From Xylographa opegraphella (Eukaryota): DNA of 64,000 bases. This document shows positions 1 to 61,868 of this stretch, in pieces. The position numbers and the translations under genes were made by a program. Position 1 is the stretch's first letter; each line of letters opens with the position of its first letter. The notes below the pieces were generated by a model. That model was not told the origin of the DNA. It worked only from the letters and a program-made list of their open reading frames with translations, and did not search any database. The stretch spans positions 186,001-250,000 of the forward strand of contig JALDZX010000004.1 in NCBI GenBank assembly GCA_022813865.1. Direction: 5' to 3'.

Positions 1-86
1 GGGTACGGTAGGATGGCTTCGTTCTAAACTAGTTAACGTAAAAGATAGTATACAAAGCAGCACCGGTCCTTTTCCTATCCCCGCTC

Positions 87-135
87 CCTTCTTCTTCTCT
101 CTCTCTCTCTCTCTCTCCCTCACTCCCTCTTTCTC
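87..135. repeat. (CT)n / pyrimidine microsatellite
   Basis: cttcttcttctctctctctctctctctctccctcactccctctttctc lies immediately 3' of the stop codon of the minus-strand gene at 134. Confidence 0.9.
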
Positions 136-14493: not shown

Positions 14494-15615
14494 ATGAGAC
14501 ACGCCAGAAGCTTGGTGTCGCCAGCAGAAGCGTTGCGCTTAGTATTCTTACCGGCGTTAAACACATCCAGAACCGCTGGCCTGCACCAAGCGACTACTTA
14601 CTATCAACAACGTTCCGTATCCTCTACGTCCGAAGTTTCTCCACCCAAAGACCGTTCCTATCGCTCCCTCGATATAGCACCTCCACGGACTACGGGCCCT
14701 CGTTCGGAAAATGACTACCGTGCTCGCGAAGATAACCGCCAACCCGTTGGAACTTGGCAACCCAGATCATTTGGGCTCCGTGGCGCCGGCAATGGCCGTC
14801 CTCTGGAAAACACCGACGTGTCCTTTGGAGTTTCTACTCCACGATCATTTGGCCCTCGAGCGGACAGCACAGGTCGTCCTCTTAGAGCGAGTGATTCCTC
14901 TATAGAGACAGCAGCCTTCCGATCATTTAGACCCCTCTCGTCCCCTGAAAACCGTGCTCGTGAACAAGAAAAGCACTCCTCCGGTACCCAAACCCCACGG
15001 GAATTTGGGCCCCGCTCCTTGCGAGACGGCCCGCCTCAAGACGAGGCAATCCGCTCCTTGACAGTCCGTATAGTTTCTGACAACAAAATCCAAGAACCTG
15101 GTTACCTCCCCGACATCCTCGCTGCTATAGACCGCAAAACACACTTTGTACAACAGGTGTCTCCTCCGAATGATCCCAAATTCCCCGTTCCCATATGCAA
15201 GATCATTGACAAGAAGGAGAGCCGCGAACAGGAGAGGGCCAGAGCAAAGGCTATGAAATCCAGCCAACACGCCGCGTCGGCGAAGAAGTTGGAGTTGAGC
15301 TGGGGGATCGGAAAGCATGATCTCGAGCATAGAATGAAGAAGGTAAAGGAGTTTCTGGAGGAGGGCCGGAGAGTAGAGATTGTTATTGGGGCCTCAAGGA
15401 GGAAGGGACAGGCAAAGAAGGCGGCGAAAATAGAAGCGCAGGAGGCAGCGGAGACATTCAAGACGATCAGGGAGGCCATAGCAGGGACTGAAGACGCGAC
15501 GGAATGGAAGCCTATGGTTGGATCCGTCGGAACGATGGCCACCTTGTACCTGGAAGCAAAGACTAAGAAGGGCAAAGGGAACAAAGCCGAGAAAGACACA
15601 GAATCTGTGGATTGA
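14494..15615 (+). CDS. Mitochondrial translation initiation factor IF-3 (Aim23-like)
   Basis: Presequence-like N-terminus followed by PQDEAI, PICKIIDKK and KKLELSWGIGKHDLEHRMKKVKEFLEEGRRVEI (IF3 C-domain). Confidence 0.85.
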   Translation: MRHARSLVSPAEALRLVFLPALNTSRTAGLHQATTYYQQRSVSSTSEVSPPKDRSYRSLDIAPPRTTGPRSENDYRAREDNRQPVGTWQPRSFGLRGAGNGRPLENTDVSFGVSTPRSFGPRADSTGRPLRASDSSIETAAFRSFRPLSSPENRAREQEKHSSGTQTPREFGPRSLRDGPPQDEAIRSLTVRIVSDNKIQEPGYLPDILAAIDRKTHFVQQVSPPNDPKFPVPICKIIDKKESREQERARAKAMKSSQHAASAKKLELSWGIGKHDLEHRMKKVKEFLEEGRRVEIVIGASRRKGQAKKAAKIEAQEAAETFKTIREAIAGTEDATEWKPMVGSVGTMATLYLEAKTKKGKGNKAEKDTESVD

Positions 15616-27235: not shown

Positions 27236-29198
27236 ATGGCGGAACGCTACATCCCAGAACATCGCAGGACTCAGTTCAAGGCCAAGAACACCTTCAAGCC
27301 AGATGAGCTGCGACGTCGTCGTGAAGAACAGCAAGTCGAGATTCGCAAGGCTAAGAGGGAAGAGAATTTGGCAAAGCGAAGAGGCATAGTGGCGAGAGAT
27401 GGCACTCAGACTTCAGCCCCAGGTGAATCTCTAGGAGCAGGATTCGATAGTGATGATGAAGATGGGGGCTCAATCGAAAGTCAGGTACGCTGAACATCCG
27501 GGCGAAGGGCATGCTCCAGAATATCTATCATTACTCAAGACCTTGTACTTCCACAGCAGGGATCTTTCACGAGAGACCTTTCTGATCTTTGATGGCCTCG
27601 TTACTGATCCCCTCAACCGATTTGTTTACTTCCACTTCCATTTATAGACACATGCAACCGTGTTTTGTATGCTATTAATATGAACTTCACTAATCGAACC
27701 TCTTTAGCTCAATGTCGAACTGCCACAAATGGTACAAGGGGTGTTCTCAAACGAAATCGATGCGCAGATTCAAGCAACAACTAAATTCCGTAAACTCTTG
27801 TCCAAAGAGCGCAACCCTCCCATTGAGAAGGTCATCGAAACAGGAGTTGTTAGCCGCTTCGTAGAATTTCTCCGCTCACCACATAGCTTGGTTCAGTTTG
27901 AAGCGGCTTGGGCTCTCACAAATATTGCTTCTGGATCTGCTCAGCAGACCCAGGTCGTTATTAATGCTGGAGCAGTGCCGATCTTTGTCGAGCTGCTGAG
28001 CAGCCATGAGCCTGACGTTAGAGAACAGGCAGTATGGGCACTTGGTAACATTGCCGGAGACAGCCCCCATTGCAGAGATTTTGTGCTTGCGGCAGGAGCA
28101 CTCCGACCTTTACTTGCCCTTCTCGGGGACAGTCGTAAACTTAGCATGCTGCGGAATGCAACATGGACACTTAGCAACTTCTGCCGTGGCAAGACTCCTC
28201 AGCCAGATTGGCAAACAGTACGTACACTTCGAGCACTATTTTAAGCCCACGTGCTGATTGCTCGATAGATTCTCCCAGCTCTTCCTGTGCTTGCAAAACT
28301 TGTCTATTCTTTAGACGATGAGGTCCTCATTGATGCTTGCTGGGCTATTTCCTATCTCTCCGATGGCGCGAATGATAAAATTCAGGCCGTGATTGAAGCG
28401 GGGATCCCACGCCGTCTCGTAGAACTCCTAACACACGCTTCAACATCTGTGCAGACTCCCGCCCTCAGATCGGTCGGAAACATCGTTACGGGAGACGATG
28501 TGCAGACTCAGATCATCATCAATAATGGCGCTCTTGCAGCCTTGTTGTCGCTTCTGGACTCCACAAAAGATGGCATACGCAAAGAGGCTTGTTGGACCAT
28601 TTCCAATGTGACTGCAGGGAACTCTACGCAAATTCAAGCTGTCATTGACGCGGGTATCATCCCTCCTTTGATACACCTACTATCCAACGGCGACTTTAAA
28701 ACTCGAAAAGAAGCCTGTTGGGCCATCTCCAATGCTACTTCAGGTGGACTACAGAAGCCTGAACAGATCCGATACCTCGTCCAGCAAGGCTGCATCAAGC
28801 CTCTTTGCGAGTTACTTTCGTGTCCCGACAACAAGATCATCCAGGTAGCCCTCGATGGTTTGGAGAACATTTTGAAGGTCGGCGAGATGGACAAGGAAGC
28901 TTCTGAGAACGCAGCCGATCAAAGTATTAATCGTTATGCTCTATTCATCGAAGAAGCAGGTGGTATGGAGAAGATACATGATTGTCAGAACAACGTCAAC
29001 GAAGAGATTTACATGAAGGCATACAACATCATAGAGAAGTACTTTTCTGACGAGGAAGATGCTGGAGAGATCGAGAATGCCGCTCCTCAGCAAGGACAAG
29101 ATGGAACATTTGGATTTGGAGGCCAGCAGCAGCAACAGCAACAACCACAACAAGGCGGCTTCAGTTTCGCCAACGGAGGAGACTCCATGGATATGTAA
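27236..29198 (+). CDS. SRP1: Importin subunit alpha (karyopherin alpha, Kap60/KapA)
   Basis: IBB domain [26 protein letters not shown] and ARM repeats ([36 protein letters not shown]). Introns at 27485-27707 and ~28218-28268. Confidence 0.97.
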
Positions 29199-41720: not shown

Positions 41721-43226
41721 AGTAAGCTCTGATTTACACCCGACAACGGACCCAAAACTATTAACACTCGACAGTGACCGATTCTGCTGAAGAGATTGAC
41801 CTCTACGGTAGTTTAGATGTATGTCCGTAAATAGGGTGTACTGAGTCCCCTCCAGAGGTTCTTGAGATTACACGGGACGCAAGCAAAGCCGAAATAAAAA
41901 AAGCCTATCACAAAGTGAGATATCCTTGTTCTCCGGTCGCAGTAATACTCAGACAAGCTCCAGGCGGCCCTAGCAAGCCACCCGGACAAGGTGGCCGAGG
42001 AGGATCGAGAAGCTGCAGACATCAGATTCAAGGTTGTCAGCCAGGCGTACGAAATACTCTATGATGAGGGAACGAGAGAAATGTACGACGCCCACGGCAT
42101 GGCAGCCTTTGACAAAACCAAGGGCGGCATGCCTCAATATACCGACATGGACGACATCATCAACCAATTCTTCTCAATGGGAGGAGGAATACCCCCAGGT
42201 TTTGACGGCGGGAGGTCGAAAAAACCTCGTAAAGGCGCCGATCAGATCCAGGATTACCCAGTAACTATGGAAGATCTGTACAAGGGCAAGAGTAAGAAGA
42301 TAAAGATCACGAAGAACGTCATTTGTGGGTATTGCAAAGGTACGGGTGCAAAATCAAATACAAAGTCACATCAATGCAGCAGCTGTGGTGGCGAGGGTAG
42401 GCTTTACTGTCGCATTTAGTACTGTACGCAGCTTAGAAAAGATTACCAGGAGCCACACAGAAAGTGAAACACGTCAATGGCGATTATCGCCATATCAGTG
42501 CTGAGTGCAGTACCTGCCACGGATACGGATCCATTTTCAAGGAGAAGGACAAATGTAAAAAGTGTAGGGGTAAAAGGATTACACTGGAGAGCAAGGTGAT
42601 TGAGTTGTATATACCCAAAGGGTCTTAGTAAGCTTTAATTCTCTACTCTTTGATTATATGCAACTAACACATTATATAGTGATGGGGATAAGATAAAGTT
42701 CAAAGGTGAAGCAGATCAAGTACCGGGTCAAACACCTGGAGATCTCGTAATCCTTCTCAACGAGAAACCTCAACCTACATTCACAAGGAAGGGCGAACAT
42801 CTGCTTGCAACTATCAACATTGCCCTTGCAGAGTCCTTGTTTGGATTCTCGCGTGTAGTGCTCAGACACGTAGACGGCCGCGGCCTGCACATGAGTAGAT
42901 CTCGGGGTCAAATTACAAAGCCTGGTCAAACCTTCAAGATCGCTGGGGAAGGCATGCCCATCAAGAAGACGGGGATCACAGGCGATCTGTACCTCACGGT
43001 GAATGTCGAATTTCCAGACAATGGATGGATCCCAGACCAGAGCATGATATCAAGCTTTGTGAAAGCACTGCCACCTACTCGAAAGCCTCTGCTAGCTGAC
43101 ACAGTGGACGAAATCGAATATGATGAAAAGGCCGACATTAATCAGATTAGGATTGCCGACTCCAGGACTAACGAAGAAGATGAGGACGACGACATAGACA
43201 CAGCCCCTCAGTGTGCACAGCAATAA
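41721..43226 (+). CDS. Type I DnaJ/Hsp40 co-chaperone (Ydj1/Xdj1 family)
   Basis: J domain (DLY-EVL...EIKKAYHK-AALASHPDK...AYEILYD), CxxCxGxG zinc repeats, GEGMP and C-terminal CaaX-like CAQQ. The start ATG appears split by intron 41722-41774. Confidence 0.92.
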
Positions 43227-44778: not shown

Positions 44779-46316
44779 TTATTTAATGATCTGTGTTACT
44801 AAACCCGTAGCCACAGTTCTACCACCCTCTCGGATATTGAACCGCTGTCCCGACTCCACGGCGACTGGGTTGTGGATCTCACAGATCATCTCCACATTGT
44901 CGCCTGGCATTACCATCTTGGAGTCCTTGTCGGGAGTTTCATCGGGCCAGTGCAGTGCTGCGGACTCGTCTTAGACCGGTGTTAGCATGAACGAAGAAAT
45001 AGAGGGCAAACAGTAAATCTTACCCGCTGTCCGAATAAAAATCTGTGGCCGGTAATTGTCGTGGAAACCAGTGTGACGTCCACCTTCCTCCTTGGTTAAG
45101 ACATACATGGAGACCATGAATTTCTGATGGGCTCTCGTGGTACCAGGCTTCACAATAACCATACCACGCTTAACGTCCTCCCGCTTGACACCTCTCAGCA
45201 GAAGTCCGGAGTTGTCTCCAGCTCTTGACTCTTCACATGACTTTTTGAAGGTCTCGATATCTGTGACTTTGGTCTTTATAGGATGCTCCCCCTTGCCTAC
45301 GAGCTCCACATCGGCGTCGCGTTTTAGTGTTCCCCGTTCTACACGACCAGAAGCAACAGTACCACGACCGGGAATGGAAAACACATCTTCAACCGACATC
45401 AAGAACGGCTTCTCAGTCTCGCGCACAGGTTCCGGAATCCATGTGTCCACCGCATTGAGTAGCTCATCAATCTTTTGGACTCCAATTTCAGGTCGTCGGC
45501 CTTCAAGCGCACAAAGAGCCGAGCCAAGAATGATCGGAGTGTCATCTCCTTCGAACCCATACGTTGTAAGAAGTTCCCTCATTTCCATTTCCACAAGTTC
45601 CAACATCTCCGGGTCCTCAAGCGCATCCACCTTGTTGACGAAAACAACAATCTTCTGAACACCAACCTGGCGGGCAAGGAGTAAATGTTCCCGGGTTTGA
45701 GGCCTGATACGTGGTCAAAGTCGCCCATTCTGCTCCTTGGAGTTTCACTTACATTTGCCCATCAGAAGCAGCCACCACAATCACTGCTCCATCCATATTT
45801 GATGCACCAGTAATCATGTTCTTGATGTAGTCGGCATGCCCAGGACAGTCGACGTGAGAGTAATGCCGAGTATCTGTCTGGTATTCGATGTGTGCCGTGG
45901 AAATGGTAATTCCACGCTTTCGCTCCTCGGGTGCCTTGTCGATTGCGCCATATTCCATGAAATTGGCAAAACCTTTTTCTGCTTGTCGTTTGGTTATGGC
46001 CGCCGTGAGGGTAGTCTAAGGATATACTGTCAGCATGATATTTGTTGTCTGTAGAAGCCAGCGGCCATACCTTGCCATGGTCAACATGACCAATGGTACC
46101 TGGCAGGATCAGTCAGCACCATATACAAGTAGAGGTTACTGTTAAACTACCAATATTAACGTGAGGTTTTGTGCGCTCAAATACAGTGGCAAGACCTCGA
46201 ATACCATTGCGGTCGAGGCCAAAGACATGCTGGACAGGATTTACTTCTTTCGGCCGTAGCAGGACGCTCCTGCTGGTTCGCAAGAGTGGGACCAAGGATC
46301 TTGAGAACGCCAACAT
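44779..46316 (-). CDS. TUF1: Mitochondrial elongation factor Tu
   Basis: Presequence, [59 protein letters not shown] and [13 protein letters not shown]. Four introns. Confidence 0.97.
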
Positions 46317-46900
46317 CCTCGATACCACCAGAAGCAGGAGAGTTCAGGCGTTGTAATCAAGGACTGACCAAACAACTAATGTTTGTCTTCATTCCTCCGA
46401 AATAAGGTAGTCATCGAAATTTCTCTAGTCTAGACTAGCACAGAGCCGGGCGCTAAGGCAGCTAGATTAAGCTCATAATGTAGGGGCCAGTTACGGGAAA
46501 TACGCGCCTCGAACTTCTCTCCACCCTGTTAACTGGACATGAACGCACTCTTCTAGCAATCCGTGTGAATTGCTTCAACTTGGATGTCTCTCCGTAAACT
46601 GTACATTATATTTACAGCACAGTATATCGGAGTTGTTGGTACGCCCAAGCATGCGGGATCTAGGCGCGGATTCGATCCCTACAAAATCTATCACCGGTGA
46701 TCCTTGCGCATCGTCCGGCGGCTGTTGGCATGCATTCATTGGACTGGACATACCGAGTTTCAATTCATGCATCCATCTCGTAGTTGCGCGTTTGTGTGCT
46801 ATAGGCTGCAGGGGATCAGCATAAGGCTTTCAGCAGGCATTTTCCTTTGCTTCACAACTCTTATTTCTGCTACAGTTTTTTGGGCACATGGTATATTATT

Positions 46901-49347
46901 ATGGCGTTCAGTTCTCAATTTGCCCTCTCATACGGGCTCGACAATATTCTCCCTGTAGTACCGATTGTCAATTTTGCAAGTGAAGGTTTACTAGAACTTG
47001 TCAGAACTCATAAAAGATCCGGCTCCGATTTACCTACGGAGTATGAGTTGGCTCGCGCTTTAGGTCGAAATAAAATCAATACTCAGTTCGAAAACAGTTT
47101 CAAGACCGCGATTCGTCATTCCACCGTAGTTCGTCGAGTATATGACATAGCCGAGCTGGTCCTCGAAGCTGGCGCCGGTCCAACGGTTGAGCACACTGTT
47201 AGCAGAGGTCCTTTTTCTTCTATGGTTATACAAATGTCATTGTTGTTATGGTCCCACCAAATTGACACGCTTGTCAAGGCAGTTGGGAAATTGCTTCGAC
47301 GTGGGAAGGACCAGAAGCAGGAGAGTCATCCTAGTCCCGAAGTATTATTAGGCACTTTCAGAAGCATACGACAACAAACGAGCGGATATCCCTGGGAACT
47401 TTTGTTCGCTGCGGTTGAGGAGACTCTGAAAGCACAGCTGGGCTTGATATCATCTCAACTGTCTCGTCCTACTCCGTTTCCTGTACTTCAAGTGATAGCA
47501 AGTGGGATCAGTCTGCTACAGAGCCGTCCTGGGAGCGTATTTATGGCAGTCCGTACTTTGGAAGGACTAAGTACGATTGTTGTTTGGGTGCACAACATGC
47601 TGGGACTTACAGTAGAGATAAAAGCTGACCGGGGCAATACTTTCTTTGGCCCTAAACCCGCTGCAGTTTTTGTCGACTGCAGGAGAATCGGTGGCCCCTT
47701 TCTTGCAGAGGCTGCTATACTCAACGAAAGCCAAGATGTCAAATTTCAAGTCGTTTTCAACCCAATGGTTGATCCGCCACTACGACCTACGAATGCTCAT
47801 CCATTGAAAGGATATGGATCAAAGTTTGTGCAGGAACTTTTGGGGATTTGGATCTCCGATGCTAAGGAGGGAATAATCACTCAAAGGATTGTGTCCCATT
47901 ACATGTCAATCTGTGTGGCGATTGTGGAGGATTACAGAACATCGAAGCAGCGTTCCGTTCATAGAACAGCCGACGAACATATACCATCCAGGCAAAGAAT
48001 ATTTGCAGTGGGGAAACTGCTCTTCCCCAGATTTGAGATATCATCAAGCAGCATGCACACGCAGAATGCTTACACGAGATATTCATATGATGAGATCAGA
48101 GGCATTCCACATGATGATTTTTGGGGCTCAAATAAGGTAGGGACGTGAGACATGAACACGTTTCCGAGTCTTATAACACGCAATTTCGTCAAAGTCAGAA
48201 AAACTGAAAATCTCGTTCGATGAGGGCGCTTCAGGGTACAATCTTCGCACTCTCGGCAGTAGACAACTTACATGACTGCGAAACAGTGCCGCTCAACGTT
48301 GATAGCTCTTCCAAATACGATAATCATATGTGCTTGACGATGTCAAACAGCTTCAACACTCTGGCGAATCTTATGAGCGACGGACCTCTCGAGACTTAGG
48401 ACCTGGCAAAAGCAGGAGTGATTAGTGGCAGAGGATGGAGCCTCTGTATGAGCTCGATCGTATCCTCTGATCCAGAGTCACTTCGTCCAGGATTGACAAT
48501 ACTTCATGGCGTCCCTTCACGTGATGGTGGACGCAGGGAATGTATTCGAGACTCCCAAATTCATGGCGAGTCGGATTGTCAAGTTGAAAAATATTCGAAC
48601 TGTACTATTGTTGCAGGACCGGGAGACACGTCCCATATCTCAAGTTTTATTAAGGGGTCAGAAACGGCTTATTATATTGGAATGGACGATCGATCATTCT
48701 GGGTGCATAAGACTTTTACATGTTTTGAAGATACTCCACCAACAAAAGACATAGCGACAATTAGAGACGGTTTTAGGATCTTGCAAGCTTTCTACTGGGC
48801 AATTTGCCAGTTACCGGACTGCGACCACTTCGCCGAGAAGGAGAAGGAGTTGAGCATACCCCCTCAAACTTACGTATTCGCAGGCTTGTGTGAGCTGATC
48901 ACGAAGGACTCGCTCAGATATAAGAAAACTTTACGTGTCGCCGGAGCAGCAGACAGTCTTCCAAACGTGGCGGGCGCAGGCCAGGTAGACGCCCTAGGTT
49001 CGCTGCAAACCAGCTTGGATGAAGACGGCAGCACGAGTGACGACAGCAGTTCAGATGACCGCAGCAGTTCAGATGAACAGAGCGATTCGAACAATGAGCG
49101 GCCGCCCGATCTTGCTGTCCAGCGCTCCAGCACTGCCGTTCCTCTAGAAAGGCATGCGCCATCTGTGTATCTTAGTCTGAGCTACAACAACCCAGCGTTG
49201 CGATGGATTTTGGTCAGGAACCTTCGTGTAACGTCGTGTTTCGATGCTGTTTACTTGAAGCACAGTAGATGCTGTACACCCTGCGCGATCAAGTTTATCC
49301 AGGCACGGACTTCCCGGAAGATTCAGCGTGTAGCATTGGTCACTTGA
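46901..49347 (+). pseudogene. Disrupted paralogue of the 50179-52572 gene (unknown function)
   Basis: Colinear similarity to the partner (SGSD..TE, AEL.LE.GAGPTV, GWSLC, GVPSR.G, CCxxCAI). Frame break at ~48148-48220 and an in-frame TAG at 48397-48399. Confidence 0.75.
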
Positions 49348-50178
49348 CCGAAGTGAGTGGAGCAGAAAATATTGGGATCAGAAGGACTTGAGCCCGTTGC
49401 TACTGGCATATCGTCTCCGGCATGCTCATTCCCTTAGCTGTATACTCTGGATCATACGACGCTATCTGATCCACGAGCTTTGCTGTTGCAGTTACCATGG
49501 ATATGCAAAGTACGAGTTTTTCACTCTCGCGCTATCTTTACAATGCGGACTTTTGCGTGGTATAGAGATATTGTATTTGACCTACGCATAAGTGGTCTAC
49601 GCGAATGCATAAAATGACATAAGCGCTATAGAGCAAGAAAAGGGCTATGCGAAACCTGAATATAAATCGAAGAGGCACATGAAATCCATTTATTTCGTCA
49701 TTATGAAAATTCCCATTGTCTTCACTGATCCGTACCGCCCAACGGTTATCCTGACACTTGCGCTTACATTTAGTTCGCCAACGTGTGTAGCCCCTTTTGC
49801 CAATAAAAATGTGCTTTGAAAGTTCGCTGAATGGATTCGTACGCTGATGTGGCCGTTTCGTTTCTTTCATGGCGACCAGATCTCTGGACGATCGCTATAT
49901 CCCTTGACCGTGAGTAGTACTATCCGACCATGCAGCGGGAAAGTCGGAAAGGACGAGGTACTTGGTAATAACCAACAGCGTGCTGTTCTCAATCTAGCTT
50001 CCGCGGTGGAATCTGGAGACAGGTGTGAAGGAAGGCGAAATTCAAAGAACCAGCGTGGCTGCTAGAAGCCCATGGCATGTCAATCTTCCACTACTTCCTA
50101 TTTACAGACATTGCAGGCAAATGTCGCAGTAATTTATAGCTTCACTCGCCAGGAGAGGTGAATTCCGGAACGGGCGGC

Positions 50179-52572
50179 CTATGCGATCAGCCCAACATGC
50201 TCGAACCCTTCTCGACCTCGTTCCTTAACAAAAGCGATAGCGCAGTCCACGCAGCATGCATCGTGCCGGAGGTAAAACGCCGCGAAAACAGAAAGCGTGT
50301 GACCACGATGGAAAGTCCGAAAATTCCCCAGCAGGATCCACCTCACCGCACTGTTCTTGGCGCTCTGGCTGATGTGTACCTGTCGTCGCCCTTCGGCAAT
50401 GAAGTCGAGCAGACCCCGGTCCACTGTCGACCTGCTCGACAATGGCTGCTCAGACGGCCTCGAGGTTGCTGCTGCCGATTCAGGGGCTTCGTTTGGCTGT
50501 GGCAGCTTTGCTGGGGCCACCTCCCTCGGTCCTGTCCCGGAAGCGCCTGGTTTGCAGGATTTATGCCGATACAGCTTGCCGGCCAAACCGTCAGAGCGAT
50601 CTGATCCTAAATGGCCGAGAAGGCCCTTGAAGACCCACACAGCTGGCGGTACTGTTATCTGATCGTTGGCCTGAAAGGAGTGTTCGCACGCCGGAACAAG
50701 ACATGCCTCCCAGAACAGATCCTGCATGTATCGAAAACCCTCACGAATATATGCAGAAGGCCCGTCGACGCGTTCCATGCATGAGAATATATTGAACACT
50801 ACAAAGGCCTTTCTCCCAGAGACCGTGGTAGTCCCAATCATGTGTTTCGACGTTGAAAGTGGTAGGAAACTCTTCACAGACACCTGCTCCGTTTCAGATG
50901 CCACAATCTTATGAGCTTCACAAACAGCACCGAGTTCAAGATCGGAGTCCCATGTAACGTTATTGCCGGCGTCCATTATCCAGTCTTTACGCTCTCCTAG
51001 ACGGGATGGAACGCCTTGAATCAAGGCTAGATCTGTGAAGACGTCCCCAGGATCGGATGCTCTAATTGAGCCGATACAGAGACTCCAGCCCCTATGACTT
51101 ATCACAACGGCACGATCGAAGTCGGTTTGATCAGGCGCTTTGCCAAGGAATAGTAACGCTAGCAGCGCAAAGGCCTCCTTCACAGTGGTAAGGCGAACAG
51201 TTCTGAATTCGGCCATTGGTAGCATATTTGTGCTAAGAGGGGCCTTTCTGCAGTCTTCTACATTCCCTATCCGGGTCATTGCGAGAATGATTACACAAAG
51301 CCTCTTGAAAGTTATACGAAGGTACTTTACCATATGTTCATGTGTTTTTGACTCCATTTCAAAAGGCACAGTAATTTGTCGAACACTCTCCAAATCCCAC
51401 TCTGCTCGTGCCAAACAGACTTCATCCATAATTGCTTCCACTTCAGAGGAGAGAATAAAATAAGCTGGAAAAAGAATTTTACCAATACTTATTATGCTCT
51501 CCTTGGTTGGCACAACATAGTTGTTCGTGACGTCGACACGGCTTTGAGCTTGGAAATTAGATACTTCTTGAATAATCTGAAAACATGATTTCATGATTTG
51601 AATCACGAGCAGCCGCCCGACACTTTGATCTTCAAAGTACGCATTTACTATCTTCGAGCCGTAGCCTTCCATGGGATGTATATTTGCAGGCTCAAGCTGT
51701 GGATCTTCCAACCAATTTGTACTTGCATGAAAGACTACGTCTTGAGTCTCGCTCAACAACGTTACTTCGTCTCGTGCACGACTATGAATTGTGCCACAAT
51801 CAATCAGCACTCTGGCAGGACCATCTCCAAACTTCACACTATATGTTTCCGAACGGACCTCAACTGTCAGGCCAAGCACCTGATGGGCCCAGATAACGAT
51901 GGTTGAAACACCCGCAACAGTCCGGAGAGATAAGAAATGGCTTTCGGGAAAGCGCTGAACGGCCGGCAGTGCATCCAGGAGACTTCGAAGTACGACATGT
52001 GCAATGGGTCGCTGGAGACAGGTCTCATCTAGGCGGAGCGCGTCCTTTAACTTCTCGTCTACAGCGGCAAACTGTAATTCCCACGTAAATCCGCAAGTCT
52101 GTTGCGAGATGCATCGCAACGTCCCGAGTAAAGCATCATATCTTGGGATATTTGAGTCCTCTGCAGAAGCTCGACATTCTAATGCCGTGGCCAATGACAA
52201 AGCAAGCGAGGTTGTCCTATGGGCCCAAACGAGCAGGGAGATTTGGACGATCATAGAGAACAGCGCAGCATTATCAAGTGCCTGTTTGACGGTTGGTCCT
52301 GCGCCAATTTCAAGGATAAGCTCTGCGATACCAGCCATCTGATAAATGTTTGAATGCTGTACAACATTTCGGAACGTGCGCAGGAATGGTGGGTTGATGT
52401 AGCATCGTCCGAAAATGGCTCCCAGGTCATGCTCCGTAATCCAGTCTGAACCCGAGTTCTGTAGATTTCTAACCACGGCAAGCAAATGCTTACTAGCAAC
52501 ATTAACAATTGGCGCCAAGGGAACAATTTTGCTTAGTTCGAGTGAGAGAGAGAAGTTGTTTGAGAATGACAT
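50179..52572 (-). CDS. Intronless ~797-aa hypothetical protein (uncharacterised family) with C-terminal CxH...CCxxC motif
   Basis: Long uninterrupted ORF starting MSFSNNFSLSLELSKIVP. It aligns end-to-end by eye with the neighbouring paralogue. Confidence 0.85.
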   Translation of the reverse strand: MSFSNNFSLSLELSKIVPLAPIVNVASKHLLAVVRNLQNSGSDWITEHDLGAIFGRCYINPPFLRTFRNVVQHSNIYQMAGIAELILEIGAGPTVKQALDNAALFSMIVQISLLVWAHRTTSLALSLATALECRASAEDSNIPRYDALLGTLRCISQQTCGFTWELQFAAVDEKLKDALRLDETCLQRPIAHVVLRSLLDALPAVQRFPESHFLSLRTVAGVSTIVIWAHQVLGLTVEVRSETYSVKFGDGPARVLIDCGTIHSRARDEVTLLSETQDVVFHASTNWLEDPQLEPANIHPMEGYGSKIVNAYFEDQSVGRLLVIQIMKSCFQIIQEVSNFQAQSRVDVTNNYVVPTKESIISIGKILFPAYFILSSEVEAIMDEVCLARAEWDLESVRQITVPFEMESKTHEHMVKYLRITFKRLCVIILAMTRIGNVEDCRKAPLSTNMLPMAEFRTVRLTTVKEAFALLALLFLGKAPDQTDFDRAVVISHRGWSLCIGSIRASDPGDVFTDLALIQGVPSRLGERKDWIMDAGNNVTWDSDLELGAVCEAHKIVASETEQVSVKSFLPLSTSKHMIGTTTVSGRKAFVVFNIFSCMERVDGPSAYIREGFRYMQDLFWEACLVPACEHSFQANDQITVPPAVWVFKGLLGHLGSDRSDGLAGKLYRHKSCKPGASGTGPREVAPAKLPQPNEAPESAAATSRPSEQPLSSRSTVDRGLLDFIAEGRRQVHISQSAKNSAVRWILLGNFRTFHRGHTLSVFAAFYLRHDACCVDCAIAFVKERGREGFEHVGLIA

Positions 52573-53617
52573 CTTCAACGACGCAGAATATATAATTACA
52601 ATAACTCAAAATGGGAAATGAGAAGGCGTCTTCATCTTTAATGACAGGTAATGAATGAGAATAACGAGGACGTCGACCTCATCATCGAAAATAGCGTATT
52701 CAGCTGACGACAATATAAGAAAACCAATACAAGAGCAGATGAAGGTGCTTGTCTTACTTCATTGAAGCCCATTGCATGTCAAACACCACAGCCAGATTAC
52801 CGCTCAAATATTCGCCGCACGTGATAATATGTTGTGTAACACGAAGGAGAGCACCATGCATCTGAGCTCGTGCATAGAATGCTTGTAGAAGGCGTCCAAT
52901 CAGGGCTCAAATATGGAGCTAGGCCGCTGAAGGTGCCGATCCTGCTCTATCATGGCAGCGATCACAGAGTACCTACGGAGTACTTCTTTTCTTGCTTCCC
53001 GAACTCGAGTTGTAACATCTCAGATCCGGTCGCTACTAGTCTGCACAACTTCAGCTGGATATTCTCACATGGAACTGACATTTGGTACACATAACATGGT
53101 GAAAGGTTGGGTTCTGCGGTTAGTGAAATTTGCTAGTGTTCAGAAAACTACGCCTGACGTGACAAAAAGAACCTGAACCACGTTGACGTATCATTGATGA
53201 AAAATGTAAACTGTAGCTCTGGTACTTGGGTTAGGATTCTGGGAATAATTATGAAGCGAGGGTTTTACTGTGGCGTGAGCTTCAGCCTACAGCATTCTCA
53301 CAATTATACAGTTTCCATGCGAACTGAAGACAGGCATTGAAATATCTTGGATTGTATTTAAGATTCTTCGAACTTGCAGGCAAACCAGCACGAGTTTCAG
53401 GGCAGAACCATGCTTTTCATTTATACGATGTAGAGCTTTGGACTTGCTCGTGACATTGAGTTATATTATGAAAAGCCATTCAAGAAATCAGATTCAAAAG
53501 GGTATCTAACCACAGAATTCCCGCCACGTCGAACCTCAAATCCAGAAAGCAAAACCTTACACGAGATTACAGCTTTGTCGACCCTTTTCTCAAAGTCAAC
53601 ACAAGGTCTTCCATGCT

Positions 53618-55486
53618 TCACCGTCTTCCCATGTCATGCCTAATCCTCACCCCACTCAGCCCTTTCACACTATCCCAAACGCTGTCACCGACCCGAACAG
53701 GCAGCTTCCTCCCTTTAAGACACTGATCGACAAGCCACGTCCCAACTACGAACTCCTCCCGTCTAAGCTGTCCCTCTTTTGGAGTACTCACGAGCTCCCA
53801 TATATCCTCCAGCATGTTGGGCGCCAGCTGGCTGCGTTTCCAAATATCCTTGACCACCAGACCGTGTACACATTCACGTGCGTCGAATGTGGATTCCTGT
53901 TTACTATCGCCAGTGGAGAGAGAAGGATCGAGAAGCAAACCTCTATTCGCAGCCCAGAGGCCCTCGTACCGTTTGCGTTCCCGCTCTGTGATGCTCTCGC
54001 GCCAGCGCTTGCGATCACCCTCGGCGTGTTTATTCGGATGCTTTTTGAGAATATAGTGATGATGCTTTTTGTGATCATCATCCGAATGAGTTGATAACTT
54101 CCGCAGAGTCTGACGCATTGGCTTGGTAGGCGAGGAAGCGCGGGACAGATGCTGCGGCGGTAAGAAGAGGTGACGTGAACGCGAATGGCTGCGAGAATAT
54201 GAAGGGGAAGCTTTAATGGGTGAGGTAGCGCGAGAGGAGGCAAGAGAGGATGCTATAGAGGAGGCAATCATCGCGTTTGCCAAAGAGTCGGCCGTCAGTT
54301 GCGGAATGATACGATTTGTGGTGTATCTGATCTCAGGACGTGAAGACGCGCGACGCGGGACACGAGGCCTACTGGTAAAGGAAGGTCGAGAAGTCAAGGG
54401 TGGGGGTAGGACGGGTTTATTGGATATGGCGGAGATAGATTTCTCGATTGTACCTGTTCTAGAGAGAACGTCTCGTGCTGATGTATACGATGAAGACGAT
54501 GATTCACTTTCCGACCAATTTAAGGAAACTGGGACTTGCCGCCGCTGAGGGCCAGCTTTCGACATTGAAGGCTTTGTATGACGTGGAGGAGGTAAAGCCG
54601 GTGGGACTTTCGAGATAACAGAGGACGGAGAAAGAGACATTAGCGGCACGTTGTTTGCCTGTTCTTCAATATTTGTGACAGCGGAGGTCGTTTGCCTGAA
54701 ATCGTTGCCTGGGATCGGTTTATGTAAACCAGGGTCTTCGATACTGAGCGAGGCGGTACTATTCTTCAAGGTGTTTGACGAGAGCCTGAGCGCTACCGAA
54801 GGTCGAATTGGTGTTGGACTGACGATTTGCCTGGTGTGCTGAGATTGACTTGTATCTCCGACGGACTCCCGGACTTTACCCACGTCCTGATTATTCGCCG
54901 CGTCTTTGACCTCCACATTAGCCTCAGTGATTCCATACCTCGACTCGAAGAGCTGCACCAGTTCCATCGTTGCCGGTATGCTTTCATCTTGGCGCTCAGG
55001 TGCCGGTATAGATTGACCACGAGCTCGAGATGTTTTTGTGCTCGTGCTACTGAGAGGAGCGATCAAAGGTACCGGAGTAGATCTTGCAGCAGCTAAAATA
55101 GCGGCGATATGCGAAGGCGACTGCTGGCGACTCGAATTTGCCGTTGAAGATAGTCTCAAGCTCTCCACGCTGCTAGAAGTAGCTCGCTTCAGAGGCACTT
55201 CTCTGACAGGGGTTCGTGGTAGGTCGCTTGAGGTAGGAGCCTGAGCTTGCACAGAGGCTATAGTGGTATGGACGTTGTTCTTGTTTCGGCCTATTCCGGC
55301 TCTTGTCGCAGCGGCAAGAGCTCCATTGTTACCGCTGTAGGTGTTGACCAAGGGTTTGGGAGGTGGAGGTGGTGCGCGGAATGCGAGTGAGGCACCTCTG
55401 AGTGCTACATTGCGATGCGGATCGTCAGTAGACACGCTCGAACGTCCGTCGAATGAGCGAGCACTCGGAGGGCTGAAGGATTTCAT
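53618..55486 (-). CDS. IRS4: Increased rDNA silencing protein 4 (EH-domain protein)
   Basis: ALRGASLAF N-terminus, Ser/Pro-rich middle, LANAMIASSIAS, KHAEGDRKRWRESITERERKRYEGLWAANRG and EH domain (VVKDIWKRSQL...EEFVVGTWLVDQCLKGRKLP). Confidence 0.88.
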   Translation of the reverse strand: MKSFSPPSARSFDGRSSVSTDDPHRNVALRGASLAFRAPPPPPKPLVNTYSGNNGALAAATRAGIGRNKNNVHTTIASVQAQAPTSSDLPRTPVREVPLKRATSSSVESLRLSSTANSSRQQSPSHIAAILAAARSTPVPLIAPLSSTSTKTSRARGQSIPAPERQDESIPATMELVQLFESRYGITEANVEVKDAANNQDVGKVRESVGDTSQSQHTRQIVSPTPIRPSVALRLSSNTLKNSTASLSIEDPGLHKPIPGNDFRQTTSAVTNIEEQANNVPLMSLSPSSVISKVPPALPPPRHTKPSMSKAGPQRRQVPVSLNWSESESSSSSYTSARDVLSRTGTIEKSISAISNKPVLPPPLTSRPSFTSRPRVPRRASSRPEIRYTTNRIIPQLTADSLANAMIASSIASSLASSRATSPIKASPSYSRSHSRSRHLFLPPQHLSRASSPTKPMRQTLRKLSTHSDDDHKKHHHYILKKHPNKHAEGDRKRWRESITERERKRYEGLWAANRGLLLDPSLSTGDSKQESTFDARECVHGLVVKDIWKRSQLAPNMLEDIWELVSTPKEGQLRREEFVVGTWLVDQCLKGRKLPVRVGDSVWDSVKGLSGVRIRHDMGRR

Positions 55487-56003: not shown

Positions 56004-58033
56004 TCACCAGGTGCTTCTCGTCACAATATCGATAGTTTCAAGTAGTGATAAGGTCCAGCTTCGGAGTGACAAAACCCTGTCCATCATCTGAGATCGTGCA
56101 CGGTGGAGGATAGTTTTTTGAGACCCTTGTCGAGAAGTGGTGTTGCCCAGCGTTGACTCCAATCTGATACCTTGAACGTGTGCCACATTCTGTAGTTCAA
56201 ACTTAGGGGAAACTAGCGGCTTGACACGTTGTCGTACCATCGTACGTTGCTCAAAAGCATACGCAACGGAAATCAGCTTTTCCTCACTCCACGCTCGACC
56301 CACGAAGGAGATCCCAAATGGAATATTTGGAGCTACCGAAACCGTAGTCCCTTTCAGATTCATTACTAGAGGCGTGTCAGCAGGATAGTACCCCAAAGGG
56401 ACAGTCACTATCGGCAATCCAGCAATTGCAGGTAGATGAAATGATGCAAATGTAGGCAGGACTAAAACATCACAGCCATATCTATCCAATGCTCCAACAA
56501 CTCCCTCTTCCAGACCCATCTTCAGGTTGGCCTCATAGGCTCGAAACGACTCAGATGATCCGCTACTGATGTTCCTCGATAGTTCTCGATCCCAGACGTA
56601 TGTGTCCCGGTCTGGATACTCTTCGCGTGGATCACCTTTCGTGAAAGCAGCCAAGTCTTCGAGGCTGTGTATGCCAAAGGGATTATGGTCCAGATGCAAG
56701 AAGTATTCAGCAAGACCTGCAACAAAGTCTGTATCCAGGACAATACTGGCATTGCGACTGAAAGCAGGGAAATCGAAGACGGGGAAATTGGCTTTATCGA
56801 TGATCGTAGCACCAGCATTGCTCATGACCTGGAGTGCATTTTCAAAATCGTCCATAATCGGCTTAGTGCGCTCGTCCAGAAAGTAATCGATGCCATTTCT
56901 TGGGATCCCGATCCGAACCCCTTTGAGGCCAAAGAAGTCACATGCTTTAACATAGTCGGGAGTGGATCCGTGCCTGAAAGGTTGCGCGGAAGTCCAGTTA
57001 TCAAACTTGTCCGGTCCAGCAATGGCACTCAGAACATATGCAGCATCTTTCACTGTCCTCGTCATCGGTCCCACGGTATCTTGCCTCAAACTGATGGGAA
57101 TCACCATACTCCGGGATGTGAGTCCTAATGTTGGTTTGATCCCGACGCCGTTACCTTTCTCGCTTGGATTGACGATACTGCCTGAAGTCTCGGTACCTAT
57201 GCTTGCGAGTGCTAATCCGACTGAAACAGCTACAGCGCTTCCACTCGAGCTCCCGGACGGGTCTTGTTGAGGATAGTACGCTCCATACACCTGTCCGCCA
57301 TAAGCACTCCATCCATGAGATGAACTCGCTTTGCGAGATCTACACTGTGCCCACTCGCCCATCGTTGCTTTGCCCAAGATGATTGCACCAGCAGAACGAA
57401 GCTTTGTAATCACAGTTGCCTCTCGTGTTACAGTCGCACCGACTAATGCAAATGATCCAGCTAGATAATGTCAGCGGCCCGCGTTTCGGGAATAAGTGCA
57501 AGATAATACCTGTATTATTTAGTTTGTCCAACGTCGCAATGTTGTCTTTGACAAGGATCGGTACACCATGCAGAGGCCTTAGATTGTGTTCAGTATTGTA
57601 ACAGAGACCTCCAAGTATTGAAGGCTTCACCTTACCCACGAATGTGGCCTTGAACACGCTCGGCATCAAGAATCCGAGCGATGCTTAGGGCATCTGGATT
57701 GATCTCGCCAACGGCGTGGAGGACATGGTTCACCTCGAAGATACGCTCGATATATGCCTATATAGGTTACGACGTTTCATTGAGATAGCACGACTCATAA
57801 CATACGCGCACAAGATCGACACTCGTCAGTGTACCGTCGGCGAAATAGTGAATTAAATCATCAATCGTGATCTCGTCCAACGGCAGGAAGTGAGAAGATG
57901 GTGCGCTCCCAGCGACCGTGGAACTTGCGTCAAGCAGCCACGGTCGCTCGGGCGCACCCACAGCCAAGAGGGGGAGGTCAAGGGAAACGAGAGGAATCAG
58001 CCCCAGGAAGAGGCTGACACCAAGCCATTTCAT
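56004..58033 (-). CDS. Secreted amidase-signature family enzyme
   Basis: Signal peptide MKWLGVSLFLGLIPLVSL, PLHGVPILVKDNIAT, GAIILGKA, PSGSSSGSAVA, IGTETSGSIV and GPMTRTVKDAA. Three 5' introns. Confidence 0.92.
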
Positions 58034-58782: not shown

Positions 58783-61700
58783 ATGCCTCCCCCTTCCATA
58801 AGACGCCAAGACTCTGATACCGTGGATGCCTCGGGCACGCAGCCACAGGTGTTGATCTCTGAGCATGATTTGGATGAAAAGTCACTTCTTCATTTTCTTT
58901 CCCAAACCACCGGCACTAACCCCTTTACAGATATCCCAATCGACCTCGCAACTTTGCCAAGACGCTGCCCTTCCATGATTTGTTTATAACACTGTTCAAT
59001 CCACTGAACAACAACAAGAAGAAGCCATCAGGACCTGTCGTTTCGAGAAAGAAACAAGGGCCACACGGACCGTCGAGCCTGTCACCCCATGAAGTGCGCC
59101 GCTCGATTATCGAGCGATTCATTTCACGATGGAGAAAAGAGGTCGGCAACGACATTTATCCGGCGTTCAGACTTATCATTCCAGAGAAAGACCGAGACCG
59201 TGCCATGTACGGTCTCAAGGAGCGGACCATCGGCAAGCTGCTCATCAAGGCTATGAAGATCAACTCCAAATCGGAAGATGCCCAGGATTTGATCCACTGG
59301 AAACTCCCTGGCCAGACGACAACCAGTAAGATGGCGGGCGAATTTGCAGGTCGGTGCTACGAAGTCGTGAACAAACGCCCAATCACATCCGACGTGGGGT
59401 CCATGTCCATCGGAGAAGTCAATGACTTACTCGACAAACTAGCTGGAGCGCAGCGGGAAGAGCATCAGCTACCGATCATTGAGGAATTCTACGGTAAGAT
59501 GAACGCCGAAGAAATTATGTGGCTCGTTCGGATCATTCTACGCCAGATGAAGGTTGGAGCTACTGAAAAGACACTCTTCGATATCTGGCATCCAGATGCC
59601 GAGAATTTGTTTAATGTTTCTTCTAGCCTACGCCGCGTGTGCTGGGAGCTGTATGATCCCTCGATCCGCCTCGACGGTGAAGACCGAGACATCAATCTCA
59701 TGCAGTGCTTTCAACCTCAACTCGCACAATTTCAAATGCGCGGTTTCAAAAAGATGGTTGACAGGATGCGGCCGACCGAGGAAGACAGTACCTTCTGGAT
59801 CGAGGAGAAGCTGGATGGGGAAAGGATGCAATTGCACATGGTCAGCGACAATGGAATCGCTGGCGGCAAACGGTTCAAGTTCTGGTCTCGAAAAGCTAAG
59901 GAATACACATATCTGTACGGAGAGAGTTTCTTCGACGATAATTCCGCCCTGACAAGACACATCAAGGAGGCTTTCCATGAAGGCGTCCAGAATATCATAC
60001 TCGATGGAGAAATGATAACGTGGGATCCGAAACAAGACGCGATCGTACCCTTTGGCACCCTTAAGACAGCAGCAATTGCCGACCAGCAAAATCCTTTTTC
60101 CGATACCGCTCACCGTCCGCTGTTCCGCGTCTTCGACCTCCTGTACCTCAACGGCGTTGCACTTACCCACTATACACTTCGAGATCGGCGGAATGCTCTC
60201 GAGGCCAGTGTCAAGTCCATTCATCGACGATTTGAGATACATCCCTATGTGGAAGCTCACAGCGTTGAGGAGATCGAGCCGATATTACGCAAAGTAGTCG
60301 AGGAAGCATCGGAAGGGTTGGTCCTCAAGAATCCCCGTTCATCTTATCGCCTCAATGCACGAAATGATGATTGGATGAAAGTGAAACCGGAGTATATGGA
60401 CGGTTATGGAGAGTCTTTGGATTGCGTAGTCATCGGTGGCTACTATGGCTCTGGGCGTCGCGGTGGAGGTCTATCCAGCTTTCTTTGCGGCTTAAGAGTC
60501 GATGAGAATCAGATTAGCCAGGGTGCAAATCCAATGAAGTGCTATTCGTTTTTCAAAGTCGGTGGTGGTCTCAATGGCGCCGACTACGCAGAAGTGCGGC
60601 ACCGTACCGAAGGAAAGTGGAAAGTTTGGGACTCGAAACGACCTCCGAGCGAATACATCGAACTAGCGGGTGGTGCTTTACAGTATGAGAAACCCGATGT
60701 ATGGATTAGACCAGATGAATCGGTTGTGGTGTCTGTCAAAGCAGCAAGTATCACGGCGACCGATAAGTTCAGAGTCGGATTTACGGGTCGATTCCCGCGT
60801 TTCAAATCCCTCCGACGAGATCGGGCTTGGGATTCTGCATTATCAATCCAAGGCTTTTTACAACTCAAAGCCGAAGTTGAGACAAAGCTGAAGGAGGAGG
60901 GCTTCCGCGTAGATGATAGTCGAAGGAAACGAGTGAAGACGACACACAAGAAACCTCTGGTCGTGGCAGGCAGTGAAGCAAAGCCCACAATACCATATGT
61001 AGGACCGACGAACACCATCTTCGAGGGCTTGAGCTTCTTCATAATGACCGAGTCGCTTATACCAGAGAAGAAAACGAAAGCAGAGCTCGAACAGCTCGTC
61101 AAAGACAATGGCGGCAAAATTTTTCAAACACATAATGCAAGTCCAAACACCATCTGCATTGCTAACAAGAGACTCGTTAAGGTGGCCGCTCTGCAGAAAT
61201 TGGGAAAGTTTGACATAATACGACCGTCATGGCTGCTTGATTGTATAAGGCAGTGCGAAAGTGACTCTGGCAGGCCACGGTTGCTTTTGCCCATAGAACC
61301 TGCGCATCTTTTTTCAGCATTGGACGGAACGAGGGAGCTTGCACAAGATAACGTCGATGAGTATGGCGACAGTTATGCCAGAGATGTGACAGTAGCCGAA
61401 CTGCGGACCATTTTCGACCAGATGCCACGGGAATTCGAGCACGAGTTCAATGCGCACGATTTCAAAGAGGAACTCGAGCAACACGGTCACGAATTGGCAG
61501 AGTTCCCGGGGCAGATGCCTGAAGGCTCCCTAGTCTTCGTTGACGCACTCCATTCATCTCAAAGCGATGGCACTTTCAACACGGATGACACTTTCAACAC
61601 GGATGACATAGGCATCCCGGGCACGGCTGATCTCAGGTACAAGCAAGCATGCAACACAGCAAGGTTTGCAGGTGCAGCAATCACGACGCACGTGGTTGAC

Positions 61701-61868
61701 TCGAACATCTCTCACGTCCTCATTGGAGAAGACCGTCGGAATTTGCGCGCTCTTCGCAAGGAATTCTCCACACGCAGGAAACTACCTCGTTTCGTGACAC
61801 TGGAATGGATCGAAGAGAGCTGGAAGGCGAAGACGTTGCTTGACGAAGAGCGCTTCGTCCCAGTCTGA
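58783..61868 (+). CDS. LIG4: DNA ligase IV (NHEJ)
   Basis: Intron ~58881-58930. EKDRDRAMYGLKE, adenylation motif EEKLDGERMQ, ILDGEM, EGLVLK, WMKVKPEY, RFPRF and two C-terminal BRCT domains. Confidence 0.96.
61571..61608 (+). repeat. Perfect 18-bp tandem duplication within LIG4 (TFNTDD x2)
   Basis: CACTTTCAACACGGATGA at 61571 and 61589. Confidence 0.9.

Follow-up and report, generated by a model that had tools for sequence, protein, structure and literature searches.

Fungal allorecognition and meiotic drive are exemplified by het-c/pin-c, het-6/un-24 and the Spok genes, and proteins with a von Willebrand factor A (vWA) domain that carries a metal ion-dependent adhesion site (MIDAS) are known with dedicated partners, as in the case of the Rea1/midasin MIDAS with Ytm1 and Rsa4 or of the bacterial MoxR-vWA pairs. 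Here, we set against these systems a locus at positions 46901-52572 of a 64-kb stretch of the Xylographa opegraphella genome (contig JALDZX010000004.1, positions 186,001 to 250,000; this whole stretch is called the window below), which holds two related genes of about 800 codons arranged tail to tail, one of them intact and the other broken. We consider it likely that the broken copy was inactivated recently by two independent lesions, and that the locus represents an old pair of an undescribed family passing through ordinary birth-and-death. The family is undescribed and structurally unmatched, and the event seen in the window is of a known kind.

The locus is similar to fungal allorecognition and meiotic-drive pairs in that the two genes are tightly linked and divergent, one copy is broken and the family is lineage-restricted; however, Pfam gave no HET, NLR, kinase or nuclease signature here, syntenic orthologues exist across species, and there is no hypervariable domain. 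With the MIDAS-vWA and partner systems the family shares a gene that adjoins an intact-MIDAS vWA gene in seven of twelve lineages, in two orientations and once fused to it, as well as near-invariant acidic residues in a flexible N-terminal peptide, but it is devoid of AAA+, UBL or any other known domain and the window itself has no vWA gene. As in a recent pseudogene within a tandem paralogue pair, two disabling lesions are found in an otherwise undecayed frame, the orthologues are intact and the sister gene is retained; the difference is that one of the lesions is a 68-nt piece common to a second locus and provided with an intron-like core, which is an unusual way to break a gene. Finally, the family resembles the Pfam 'domain of unknown function' families of Pezizomycotina in being large, conserved and known as 'hypothetical protein' only (585 clusters), and differs from them in that no Pfam model matches it and that its confident structural models have no match among solved folds.

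The convergent pair and the lesions of its plus copy

The minus copy (50179-52572, minus strand) is an intact single-exon gene, read as one open reading frame (ORF) of 797 amino acids (aa) plus stop, and the plus copy (46901-49347, plus strand) is its broken paralogue; in what follows, the lineage of the minus copy is called A-type and that of the plus copy B-type. The plus copy appears as two ORFs on the plus strand, 46901-48148 (415 aa) and 48448-49347 (299 aa, in a frame that is open from 48400). BLASTP aligned its N-part with residues 1-378 of the minus copy (39% identity over 386 aa, E 7e-89) and its C-part with residues 500-796 (29% identity over 320 aa, E 1e-33), in agreement with the initial annotation of this DNA, which had described two alignable tail-to-tail paralogues of about 800 aa, one intact and one broken; all ten motif pairs quoted there occur in the translations of both copies. 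No repeat joining the plus and minus copies was found at the DNA level, which argues that their likeness is old and visible at the protein level only. The two genes are convergent (tail-to-tail) old paralogues, and a search for a third family copy in the window with 16 queries returned no high-scoring segment pair outside 46800-52700.

The lesions were located with the help of the plus-type orthologue from Xylographa bjoerkii (P0040, 793 aa). In a tblastn comparison of this protein with the window, residues 1-413 matched codons 1-413 of the plus copy (46901-48139, plus strand, frame of 46901) at 78% identity and residues 414-793 matched 48208-49344 at 72% identity (plus strand, frame of 46903; codons 414-792 together with the stop occupy 48208-49347), leaving 68 nt unaccounted for between residues 413 and 414. 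These 68 nt (48140-48207, plus strand), with which the plus copy is broken, are exactly the bases that have no counterpart in P0040 and in the orthologue from X. pallens, P0234. The insertion shifts the frame by +2, leading to a TGA at 48146-48148 in the upstream frame, and a second TGA inside it (48205-48207) lies in the downstream frame. The other lesion is an in-frame TAG nonsense codon on the plus strand at 48397-48399 (not 48398-48400), opposite Gly476 of P0040; the site aligns with Gly in X. bjoerkii and with Glu in X. pallens. A frame break and a TAG had already been noticed in the plus copy, and the coordinates given here locate them. The description of both genes as intronless held for the minus copy (one ORF, with orthologues of the same 797 aa) and was refined for the plus copy, in which the frame break is an insertion and not an intron.

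The ends of the 68-nt insertion are GG…GA and not GT…AG, and its length is not a multiple of three. All GT/GC…AG pairs were enumerated at the frame break, and the sole short canonical in-frame candidate, 48145-48224, was rejected as an intron, as it deletes the conserved KSRSMR and leaves the TAG in place. One long GT..AG pair was found as well, spanning 263 nt (48137-48399), with which both lesions would be bypassed in frame. The plus copy might accordingly be still functional, either through this splice from GT 48137 to AG 48399 or by way of two products, namely the 415-aa N-half and a C-half starting from the ATG at 48448, and it may be said for such a gene that one canonical GT..AG removes both lesions with the frame staying open, that the remaining reading frame is undamaged, and that half-length family proteins, e.g. 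P0035 (437 aa) and P0048 (430 aa), are present among the database representatives. Nevertheless, we regard a working plus copy as improbable: the 263-nt splice deletes about 65 codons that are conserved in the plus-type orthologues (a fraction of 0.80 of the columns is invariant in the block 401-440) and that align to predicted linker helices in the model of the minus copy, its donor GTAGGG is weak, 263 nt is long for a fungal intron, and the half-length proteins in the database may stem from contig ends or from broken gene models. What distinguishes a recent pseudogene was thus found in the plus copy, that is, disabling lesions in comparison with intact orthologues and no canonical splice that restores the conserved frame.

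The lesions were checked on the contigs of the single public sequencing run that covers the locus; this run may be the window's own source sample. At the insertion one run contig stops at 48169 and the next begins at 48178, and a separate contig of 68 nt spans precisely 48140-48207, from which it differs at one base (A>C at 48176). Two more run contigs, of 38.6 kb and 3.5 kb, end or begin with the first or last 30 nt of the 68-nt piece and then continue into sequence unlike this locus; since the 68-nt contig joins contigs with unlike flanks, a second genomic copy of the piece, with 67/68 identity, is indicated. The depth of the 68-nt contig was 192 versus about 160-168 in the flanks, which fits two 68-nt copies, differing by one base, that were merged into a single contig; within the 64-kb window there is one occurrence of the piece. 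Its sequence includes a well-formed intron-like core of 54 nt (48145-48198), with GTGAGA at 48145, TTATAAC and a CAG ending at 48198, and looks like an exon-intron-exon junction fragment copied from another locus. It may be filler DNA copied from the exon-intron junction of another gene during break repair. As to the second lesion, the run contig over 48178-49400 showed the TAG, and no competing letter was recorded there (0). At 80% likeness, the locus was not covered by two further runs from that study (X2 and X3). It might be argued that both lesions are artefacts of assembly or sequencing and that the plus gene is intact in the organism, the more so as the run contigs break at the 68-nt piece, a repeat with two copies, where a mis-join is conceivable. 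This is extremely improbable, however, as the contigs read from unique plus-copy sequence into the repeat from both sides at about 160-fold depth, the TAG is seen without a competing letter, and two independent lesions would both have to be erroneous.

History of the pair and tempo of the decay

Xylographa genomes have been released by Resl et al. (PMC9098629). Orthologues of the minus copy, 795-797 aa in length and 74-83% identical, were found in four named Xylographa species and in one further record. In X. bjoerkii, the plus-type P0040 (MMC18_001032) and the minus-type P0004 (MMC18_001033) are adjacent on one contig of 300,895 nt, and in X. pallens, the plus-type P0234 (MMC27_000605) and the minus-type P0240 (MMC27_000606) are adjacent on one contig of 683,186 nt, so in both species the two copies are full-length and neighbouring, each being 74-82% identical to its orthologues. 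A tree of 67 rows was built with IQ-TREE, with support values from the SH-like approximate likelihood ratio test (SH-aLRT). The minus type and its Xylographa orthologues formed one clade (support 100), and the plus type together with P0040 and P0234 formed another (100). The stem of the plus-type clade is long (1.1 substitutions per site), and its sister group (94) consists of more slowly evolving B-type genes from X. carneopallida, X. parallela, Lambiella and Ptychographa, a placement which indicates that the A/B duplication predates these genera. The plus lineage went through a burst of change and settled afterwards. One of its two losses of family-conserved residues is the replacement of Glu12 by Gly; all other A-type and B-type sequences displayed have Glu or Asp at position 12. 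The tail-to-tail pair probably arose before the Xylographa species diverged, and its two genes are still neighbours in at least three of them.

To follow the state of the broken gene, the plus copy was reconstructed by omitting the 68 nt and placing an X at the stop. The reconstructed plus copy comprises 792 codons with one stop, and a single residue in the low-complexity insert makes the only gap in its alignment with the orthologues. Its identity is 75.3% to P0040 and 74.5% to P0234, and the latter two, both intact proteins of 793 aa, are 77.3% identical to each other; the corresponding values for the minus-type gene in the same three species pairs are 78.0, 80.8 and 81.9%. Plus-type divergence is hence about 1.1-1.3 times the minus-type one in all three pairs, the pair of two intact genes included, and the terminal branch of the plus copy in the IQ-TREE phylogeny amounts to 0.18 substitutions per site versus 0.14 for the minus copy. 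Forty-seven columns are conserved at 90% or more among 184 other members of the family, and the plus copy keeps 45 of them, as does P0040, with 43 kept by P0234 and all 47 by the minus copy. The retention of 45 out of 47 conserved residues argues for a recent inactivation, and the plus copy appears to have been under constraint until very recently. In the proposed course of events, one lesion would be the 68-nt piece at 48140-48207, copied from or shared with another locus, and the other the change of a Glu or Gly codon to TAG at 48397-48399; the asymmetric decay would mean that a small multigene family is losing one of its members in the ordinary way, and not a toxin-antidote or allorecognition design.

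Several points count against a recent inactivation as proposed here. The run that confirms the lesions may come from the source sample of the window and would then not be independent, so that it rules out a slip of the consensus rather than providing an independent confirmation. Furthermore, P0040 and P0234 are automatic gene models seen as protein only, and an intron at the same codon could formally be present in them. Finally, no full-length plus-type protein was returned for X. soralifera or X. trunciseda in a search that scored only the 8000 best word-sharing candidates with lengths of 436-1388 aa; the minus type is present in both species, and loss of the plus type is possible there.

The family, its predicted structure and its genomic setting

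An exhaustive phmmer search retrieved 585 representative clusters at E<=1e-3, 398 at E<=1e-10 and 188 at E<=1e-30, spread over four classes, i.e. Lecanoromycetes, Eurotiomycetes, Dothideomycetes and Leotiomycetes, and all named members are annotated as 'hypothetical protein'. Members were found in the Lecanoromycete genera Xylographa, Lignoscripta, Ptychographa, Lambiella, Loxospora, Varicellaria, Umbilicaria, Teloschistes, Circinaria, Schaereria, Toensbergia and Pleopsidium, and outside this class in Aspergillus sclerotialis, Aspergillus lentulus, Lophium mytilinum, Coleophoma crateriformis and Oidiodendron maius. Both window copies belong to this family of about 750-800 aa, as shown by full-length colinear similarity and by the conserved columns that they keep (47/47 and 45/47). 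Many representatives are half-length and cover the N-half or the C-half only (P0035, P0048, P0058, P0066 and P0070), and these may be contig ends, split models or broken copies. The initial annotation had recognised no domain in the pair, and a Pfam hmmscan of the three window pieces at E<=1 likewise gave 0 families; among 20 diverse relatives searched at E<=0.1, 19 had no match and one had a weak vWA match, confined to an N-terminal extension. With the family as query, the best E in a sequence profile search of the PDB was 0.33, no match came from PADLOC or NCBIfam, and ESM Atlas returned no score of 0.9 or above with the whole protein or with residues 27-300. A full-text search of the literature, which did not extend to supplements, found no description of the family. 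The sequence data indicate an undescribed family that is vertically inherited in Pezizomycotina, the filamentous ascomycetes.

Distribution and copy number, which had been named at the outset as informative for this locus, were also followed in a metagenome scan that provided 23 loci with family genes. A second family copy was present within the flanks of none of the 23 (13 diverse queries, E<=1e-5), which makes the tail-to-tail pair a trait of Xylographa and not of the family. In the window, mIF3, importin-alpha (Arm/Arm_3), DnaJ and EF-Tu are encoded at 14473-15612, 27708-29195, 41946-43223 and 44974-45714, respectively. Near the family gene of locus L019 are IF3, EF-Tu (an ORF about 3 kb away) and importin-alpha, and near those of L002 and L004 are DnaJ and importin-alpha. 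The housekeeping neighbourhood is therefore conserved but rearranged across distant lichen fungi, and such common neighbours point to vertical inheritance at a stable chromosomal site. These data bear on the possibility that the family is a domesticated or selfish mobile-element gene, similar to a transposase with a Cys cluster, and that the pair arose by local transposition. Intronless genes, a patchy range outside Lecanoromycetes, a Cys/His cluster and several copies per genome would suit such an origin, but Pfam detected no transposase or integrase, no terminal or flanking repeats were found around either copy, neighbours are conserved across distant lichen fungi, and orthologues occupy the same position in three Xylographa species, all of which makes a mobile origin highly improbable.

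An AlphaFold model of the minus protein had a mean predicted local distance difference test score (pLDDT) of 75.7 and a predicted template modelling score (pTM) of 0.79, and residues 441-797 gave 80.7 and 0.80, respectively. The parts of the model are a disordered N-terminal peptide (residues 1-26), an N-half of helical and alpha/beta character, a linker made of helices and a beta-rich C-domain, which is interrupted by a disordered insert (residues 656-718), together with a final alpha/beta element. The N-terminal peptide (52495-52572, minus strand; M.F..F.LS.EL..VP..P) is predicted to be disordered (pLDDT <50) and is nonetheless the most conserved block among the orthologues (0.9); its Glu12 is near-invariant, being present in 167 of 186 members and replaced by Gly only in the plus lineage. 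The insert of the minus protein (50419-50607, minus strand) also has pLDDT <50, and it is the least conserved part of the five orthologues (0.35-0.38). Its counterpart in the plus copy, a Ser/Asp-rich low-complexity stretch at 48946-49155 (plus strand), is the least conserved part among the three plus-type orthologues (0.28-0.38 invariant columns), and the variable insert that had been described at the same place in both copies is thereby recovered. Along the protein as a whole, the N-half is the best-conserved part, and the minimum of conservation is confined to the disordered insert. No convincing membrane segment was seen in hydropathy profiles, where the top 19-aa windows scored 1.6-2.0 and lay in predicted core strands or helices, and there was no start resembling a signal peptide; the family would consist of soluble proteins that are about 720-800 aa long and lack a signal peptide, each with the N-terminal peptide, the mixed N-half and the interrupted C-domain described above.

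The fold has no convincing relative in the searches that were made. Among PDB structures, the lowest E returned by Foldseek was 0.097 with the whole model and 0.081 with the C-domain, with none at 1e-3 or below, and the best E in BFVD was 0.025. In the VIA wide search, the best match to the whole protein was PqsE (Z 5.1, 82 residues aligned, root-mean-square deviation 3.7), residues 46-292 returned RecA/DEAD-like rows at Z of about 4, and the best Z for the C-domain was 3.4; all fold-search scores are below the level that the search tool calls meaningful. HeLo, gasdermin, HET-like, TIR-like and nuclease-like folds, most of which the initial annotation had thought might be uncovered by Foldseek on AlphaFold models, were not among the matches listed, and absence from the list does not exclude a fold.

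The C-domain contains a putative zinc site. Its first half is C629-E-H631 (50680-50688, minus strand; CDH at 48820-48828 in the plus copy), and its second half is C773-C774-V-D-C777 (50242-50256, minus strand; CCTPC at 49270-49284 in the plus copy). Among 186 members, C629 is conserved in 180, C774 and C777 in 176 each and C773 in 144, and position 631 is occupied by His in 151 and by Cys in 30, so the four conserved ligand positions with Cys/His interchange that characterise a zinc module are all present. Interchange of His and Cys is typical of a metal ligand, as is well established for zinc sites, and together with the near-invariance of C629, C774 and C777 the interchange at position 631 suggests zinc binding. 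A metal site composed of CxH and CCxxC had been proposed from the two copies alone, and its conservation across 186 members strengthens that proposal; most likely, a Cys-x-His/Cys … Cys-x2-Cys cluster closes the C-domain and binds zinc in a structural role.

With the structure, the orthologues and the genomic setting at hand, the proposal of an allorecognition, cell-death or toxin-antidote pair could be weighed, in which one paralogue would be the poison or trigger and the other the antidote or partner, and the decay would reflect allelic or presence-absence dynamics. Such a design would account for two linked, divergent and convergent genes of which one is broken, and would go well with a family range that is patchy outside lichens, with two or more copies in some genomes, and with the burst in the plus lineage (its long stem of 1.1 substitutions per site and the loss of the near-invariant Glu12); with no known fold matched, structure excludes nothing in this respect. 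On the other hand, Pfam identified no HET, HeLo, NACHT, NB-ARC or other family in the pair or in 19 of 20 relatives, and a scan of 42 other ORFs of the window revealed no allorecognition or cell-death gene. In X. bjoerkii and X. pallens the two genes lie side by side at full length, with 74-82% identity to their orthologues, unlike toxin-antidote or killer pairs, which are lineage-specific, poorly conserved and often mobile, and there is no hypervariable recognition domain, the lowest conservation being restricted to the disordered insert. Elsewhere, the gene stands as a single copy in 23 of 23 loci, and its housekeeping neighbourhood is conserved. We therefore consider a self/non-self or poison-antidote pair very improbable, and the inference of the initial annotation to that effect found no support: no relevant domain was found, adjacent orthologues are conserved, and no structured region is hypervariable. 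The three descriptive points from which it had started stand: the paralogues are local and highly diverged, their decay is asymmetric, and they lie among housekeeping genes.

The vWA neighbour, the flanks and the meaning of the locus

In 12 of the 23 metagenome loci (L001-L010, L012 and L019), a homologue of the N-terminal extension of the Circinaria protein P0016 lies directly beside the family gene. When the loci were grouped at 90% DNA identity or more into lineages of lichen fungi, these 12 represented seven of twelve. The neighbour occurs in two arrangements, in that it either precedes the family gene on the same strand or follows it in convergent orientation (for example, at 7700-9164 in L004 and at 13845-15083 in L012), and in the Circinaria gene model P0016 it is fused to the family gene. 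The neighbour encodes a vWA protein whose MIDAS motif is intact, DDSGSM…TP.G…ITDG (DxSGS…T…D), and the L012 copy matched Pfam VWA at E 4.8e-8; a sequence profile search of the PDB with this neighbour gave nothing at E<=0.01. The copy in L002 has a long PQQGY-rich repeat tail at its end.

The recurrence of a vWA gene in this neighbourhood leads to a partner reading of function. With low confidence, we suggest that the family is a zinc-stabilised, non-enzymatic partner of a MIDAS-vWA protein. A family member would be a zinc-stapled interaction partner or scaffold, and a conserved acidic residue, such as Glu12 or Glu47, could possibly be offered to the MIDAS; in Xylographa, the place beside the family gene is taken by the second paralogue, with no vWA gene nearby. 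One may go further and regard the family and the MIDAS-vWA protein as an undescribed two-protein module of filamentous ascomycetes, built on a fold without a solved relative and remodelled in Xylographa, where the vWA gene would have left the locus and the family gene would have been duplicated into the convergent A/B pair, with B evolving fast, losing Glu12 (which might be a MIDAS ligand), acting as a divergent partner or regulator of A and now being lost. This extended scenario is, in our opinion, unlikely.

Some of the data speak against a vWA partnership in the present case. No vWA gene was detected in the 64-kb window, either by tblastn at E<=1e-4 or with a hidden Markov model of the neighbour at E<=1 on all ORFs of at least 40 aa, and for this reason the partner model is not directly applicable here. 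The vWA neighbour was also not found in the L014 group and in L021, with about 10 kb of flank on each side, or in L011, within 7.3 kb downstream; the L018 group and L023, which are likewise among the five lineages without it, have flanks too short to judge.

The surroundings of the pair in the window are in accord with its earlier placement between TUF1 and IRS4. On one side lies an EF-Tu (TUF1-like) exon (44974-45714, minus strand; Pfam GTP_EFTU, D2 and D3) and on the other an EH-domain gene, IRS4-like (53621-55486, minus strand; Pfam EH, E 2.3e-7). The convergent stop codons are separated by a spacer of 831 nt (49348-50178) that has no repeat and no family-like or vWA-like ORF. Near the pair is an amidase gene (56007-57470, minus strand). 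Amidases were seen near a family gene in three places, the other two being L011 (8367-9965) and A. lentulus P0231, a gene model in which the amidase is fused to the C-half of a family protein; the L011 and A. lentulus amidases are 44% identical, and that of the window is only 26-27% identical to both, on account of which the linkage was treated as a coincidence in the window. Further away, three successive ORFs at 2495-4572 (minus strand) match consecutive parts of the fungal-specific kinase model Pkinase_fungal (PF17667) and belong to an intron-containing or broken gene. The first 2000 nt of the window (1-2000) have a GC content of 0.607, compared with about 0.47-0.55 elsewhere in the window, and contain long overlapping ORFs on both strands (2-958, plus; 137-1693, minus) without a Pfam match. 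An ordinary landmark is provided by one long ORF at 58920-61865 (plus strand), whose product is of the DNA ligase IV type and has ligase N/M/C, BRCT and DNA_ligase_IV domains.

The poison-antidote or self/non-self interpretation is not borne out, and the locus is not to be prioritised on that ground. It offers instead a clean example of probably very recent gene death, and the 68-nt piece may interest those who study short templated insertions in fungal genomes. The family, having neither a Pfam model nor a relative with a solved fold, may be proposed for a family entry of its own and for the determination of its structure, and its recurrent MIDAS-vWA neighbour provides a concrete handle on its function.

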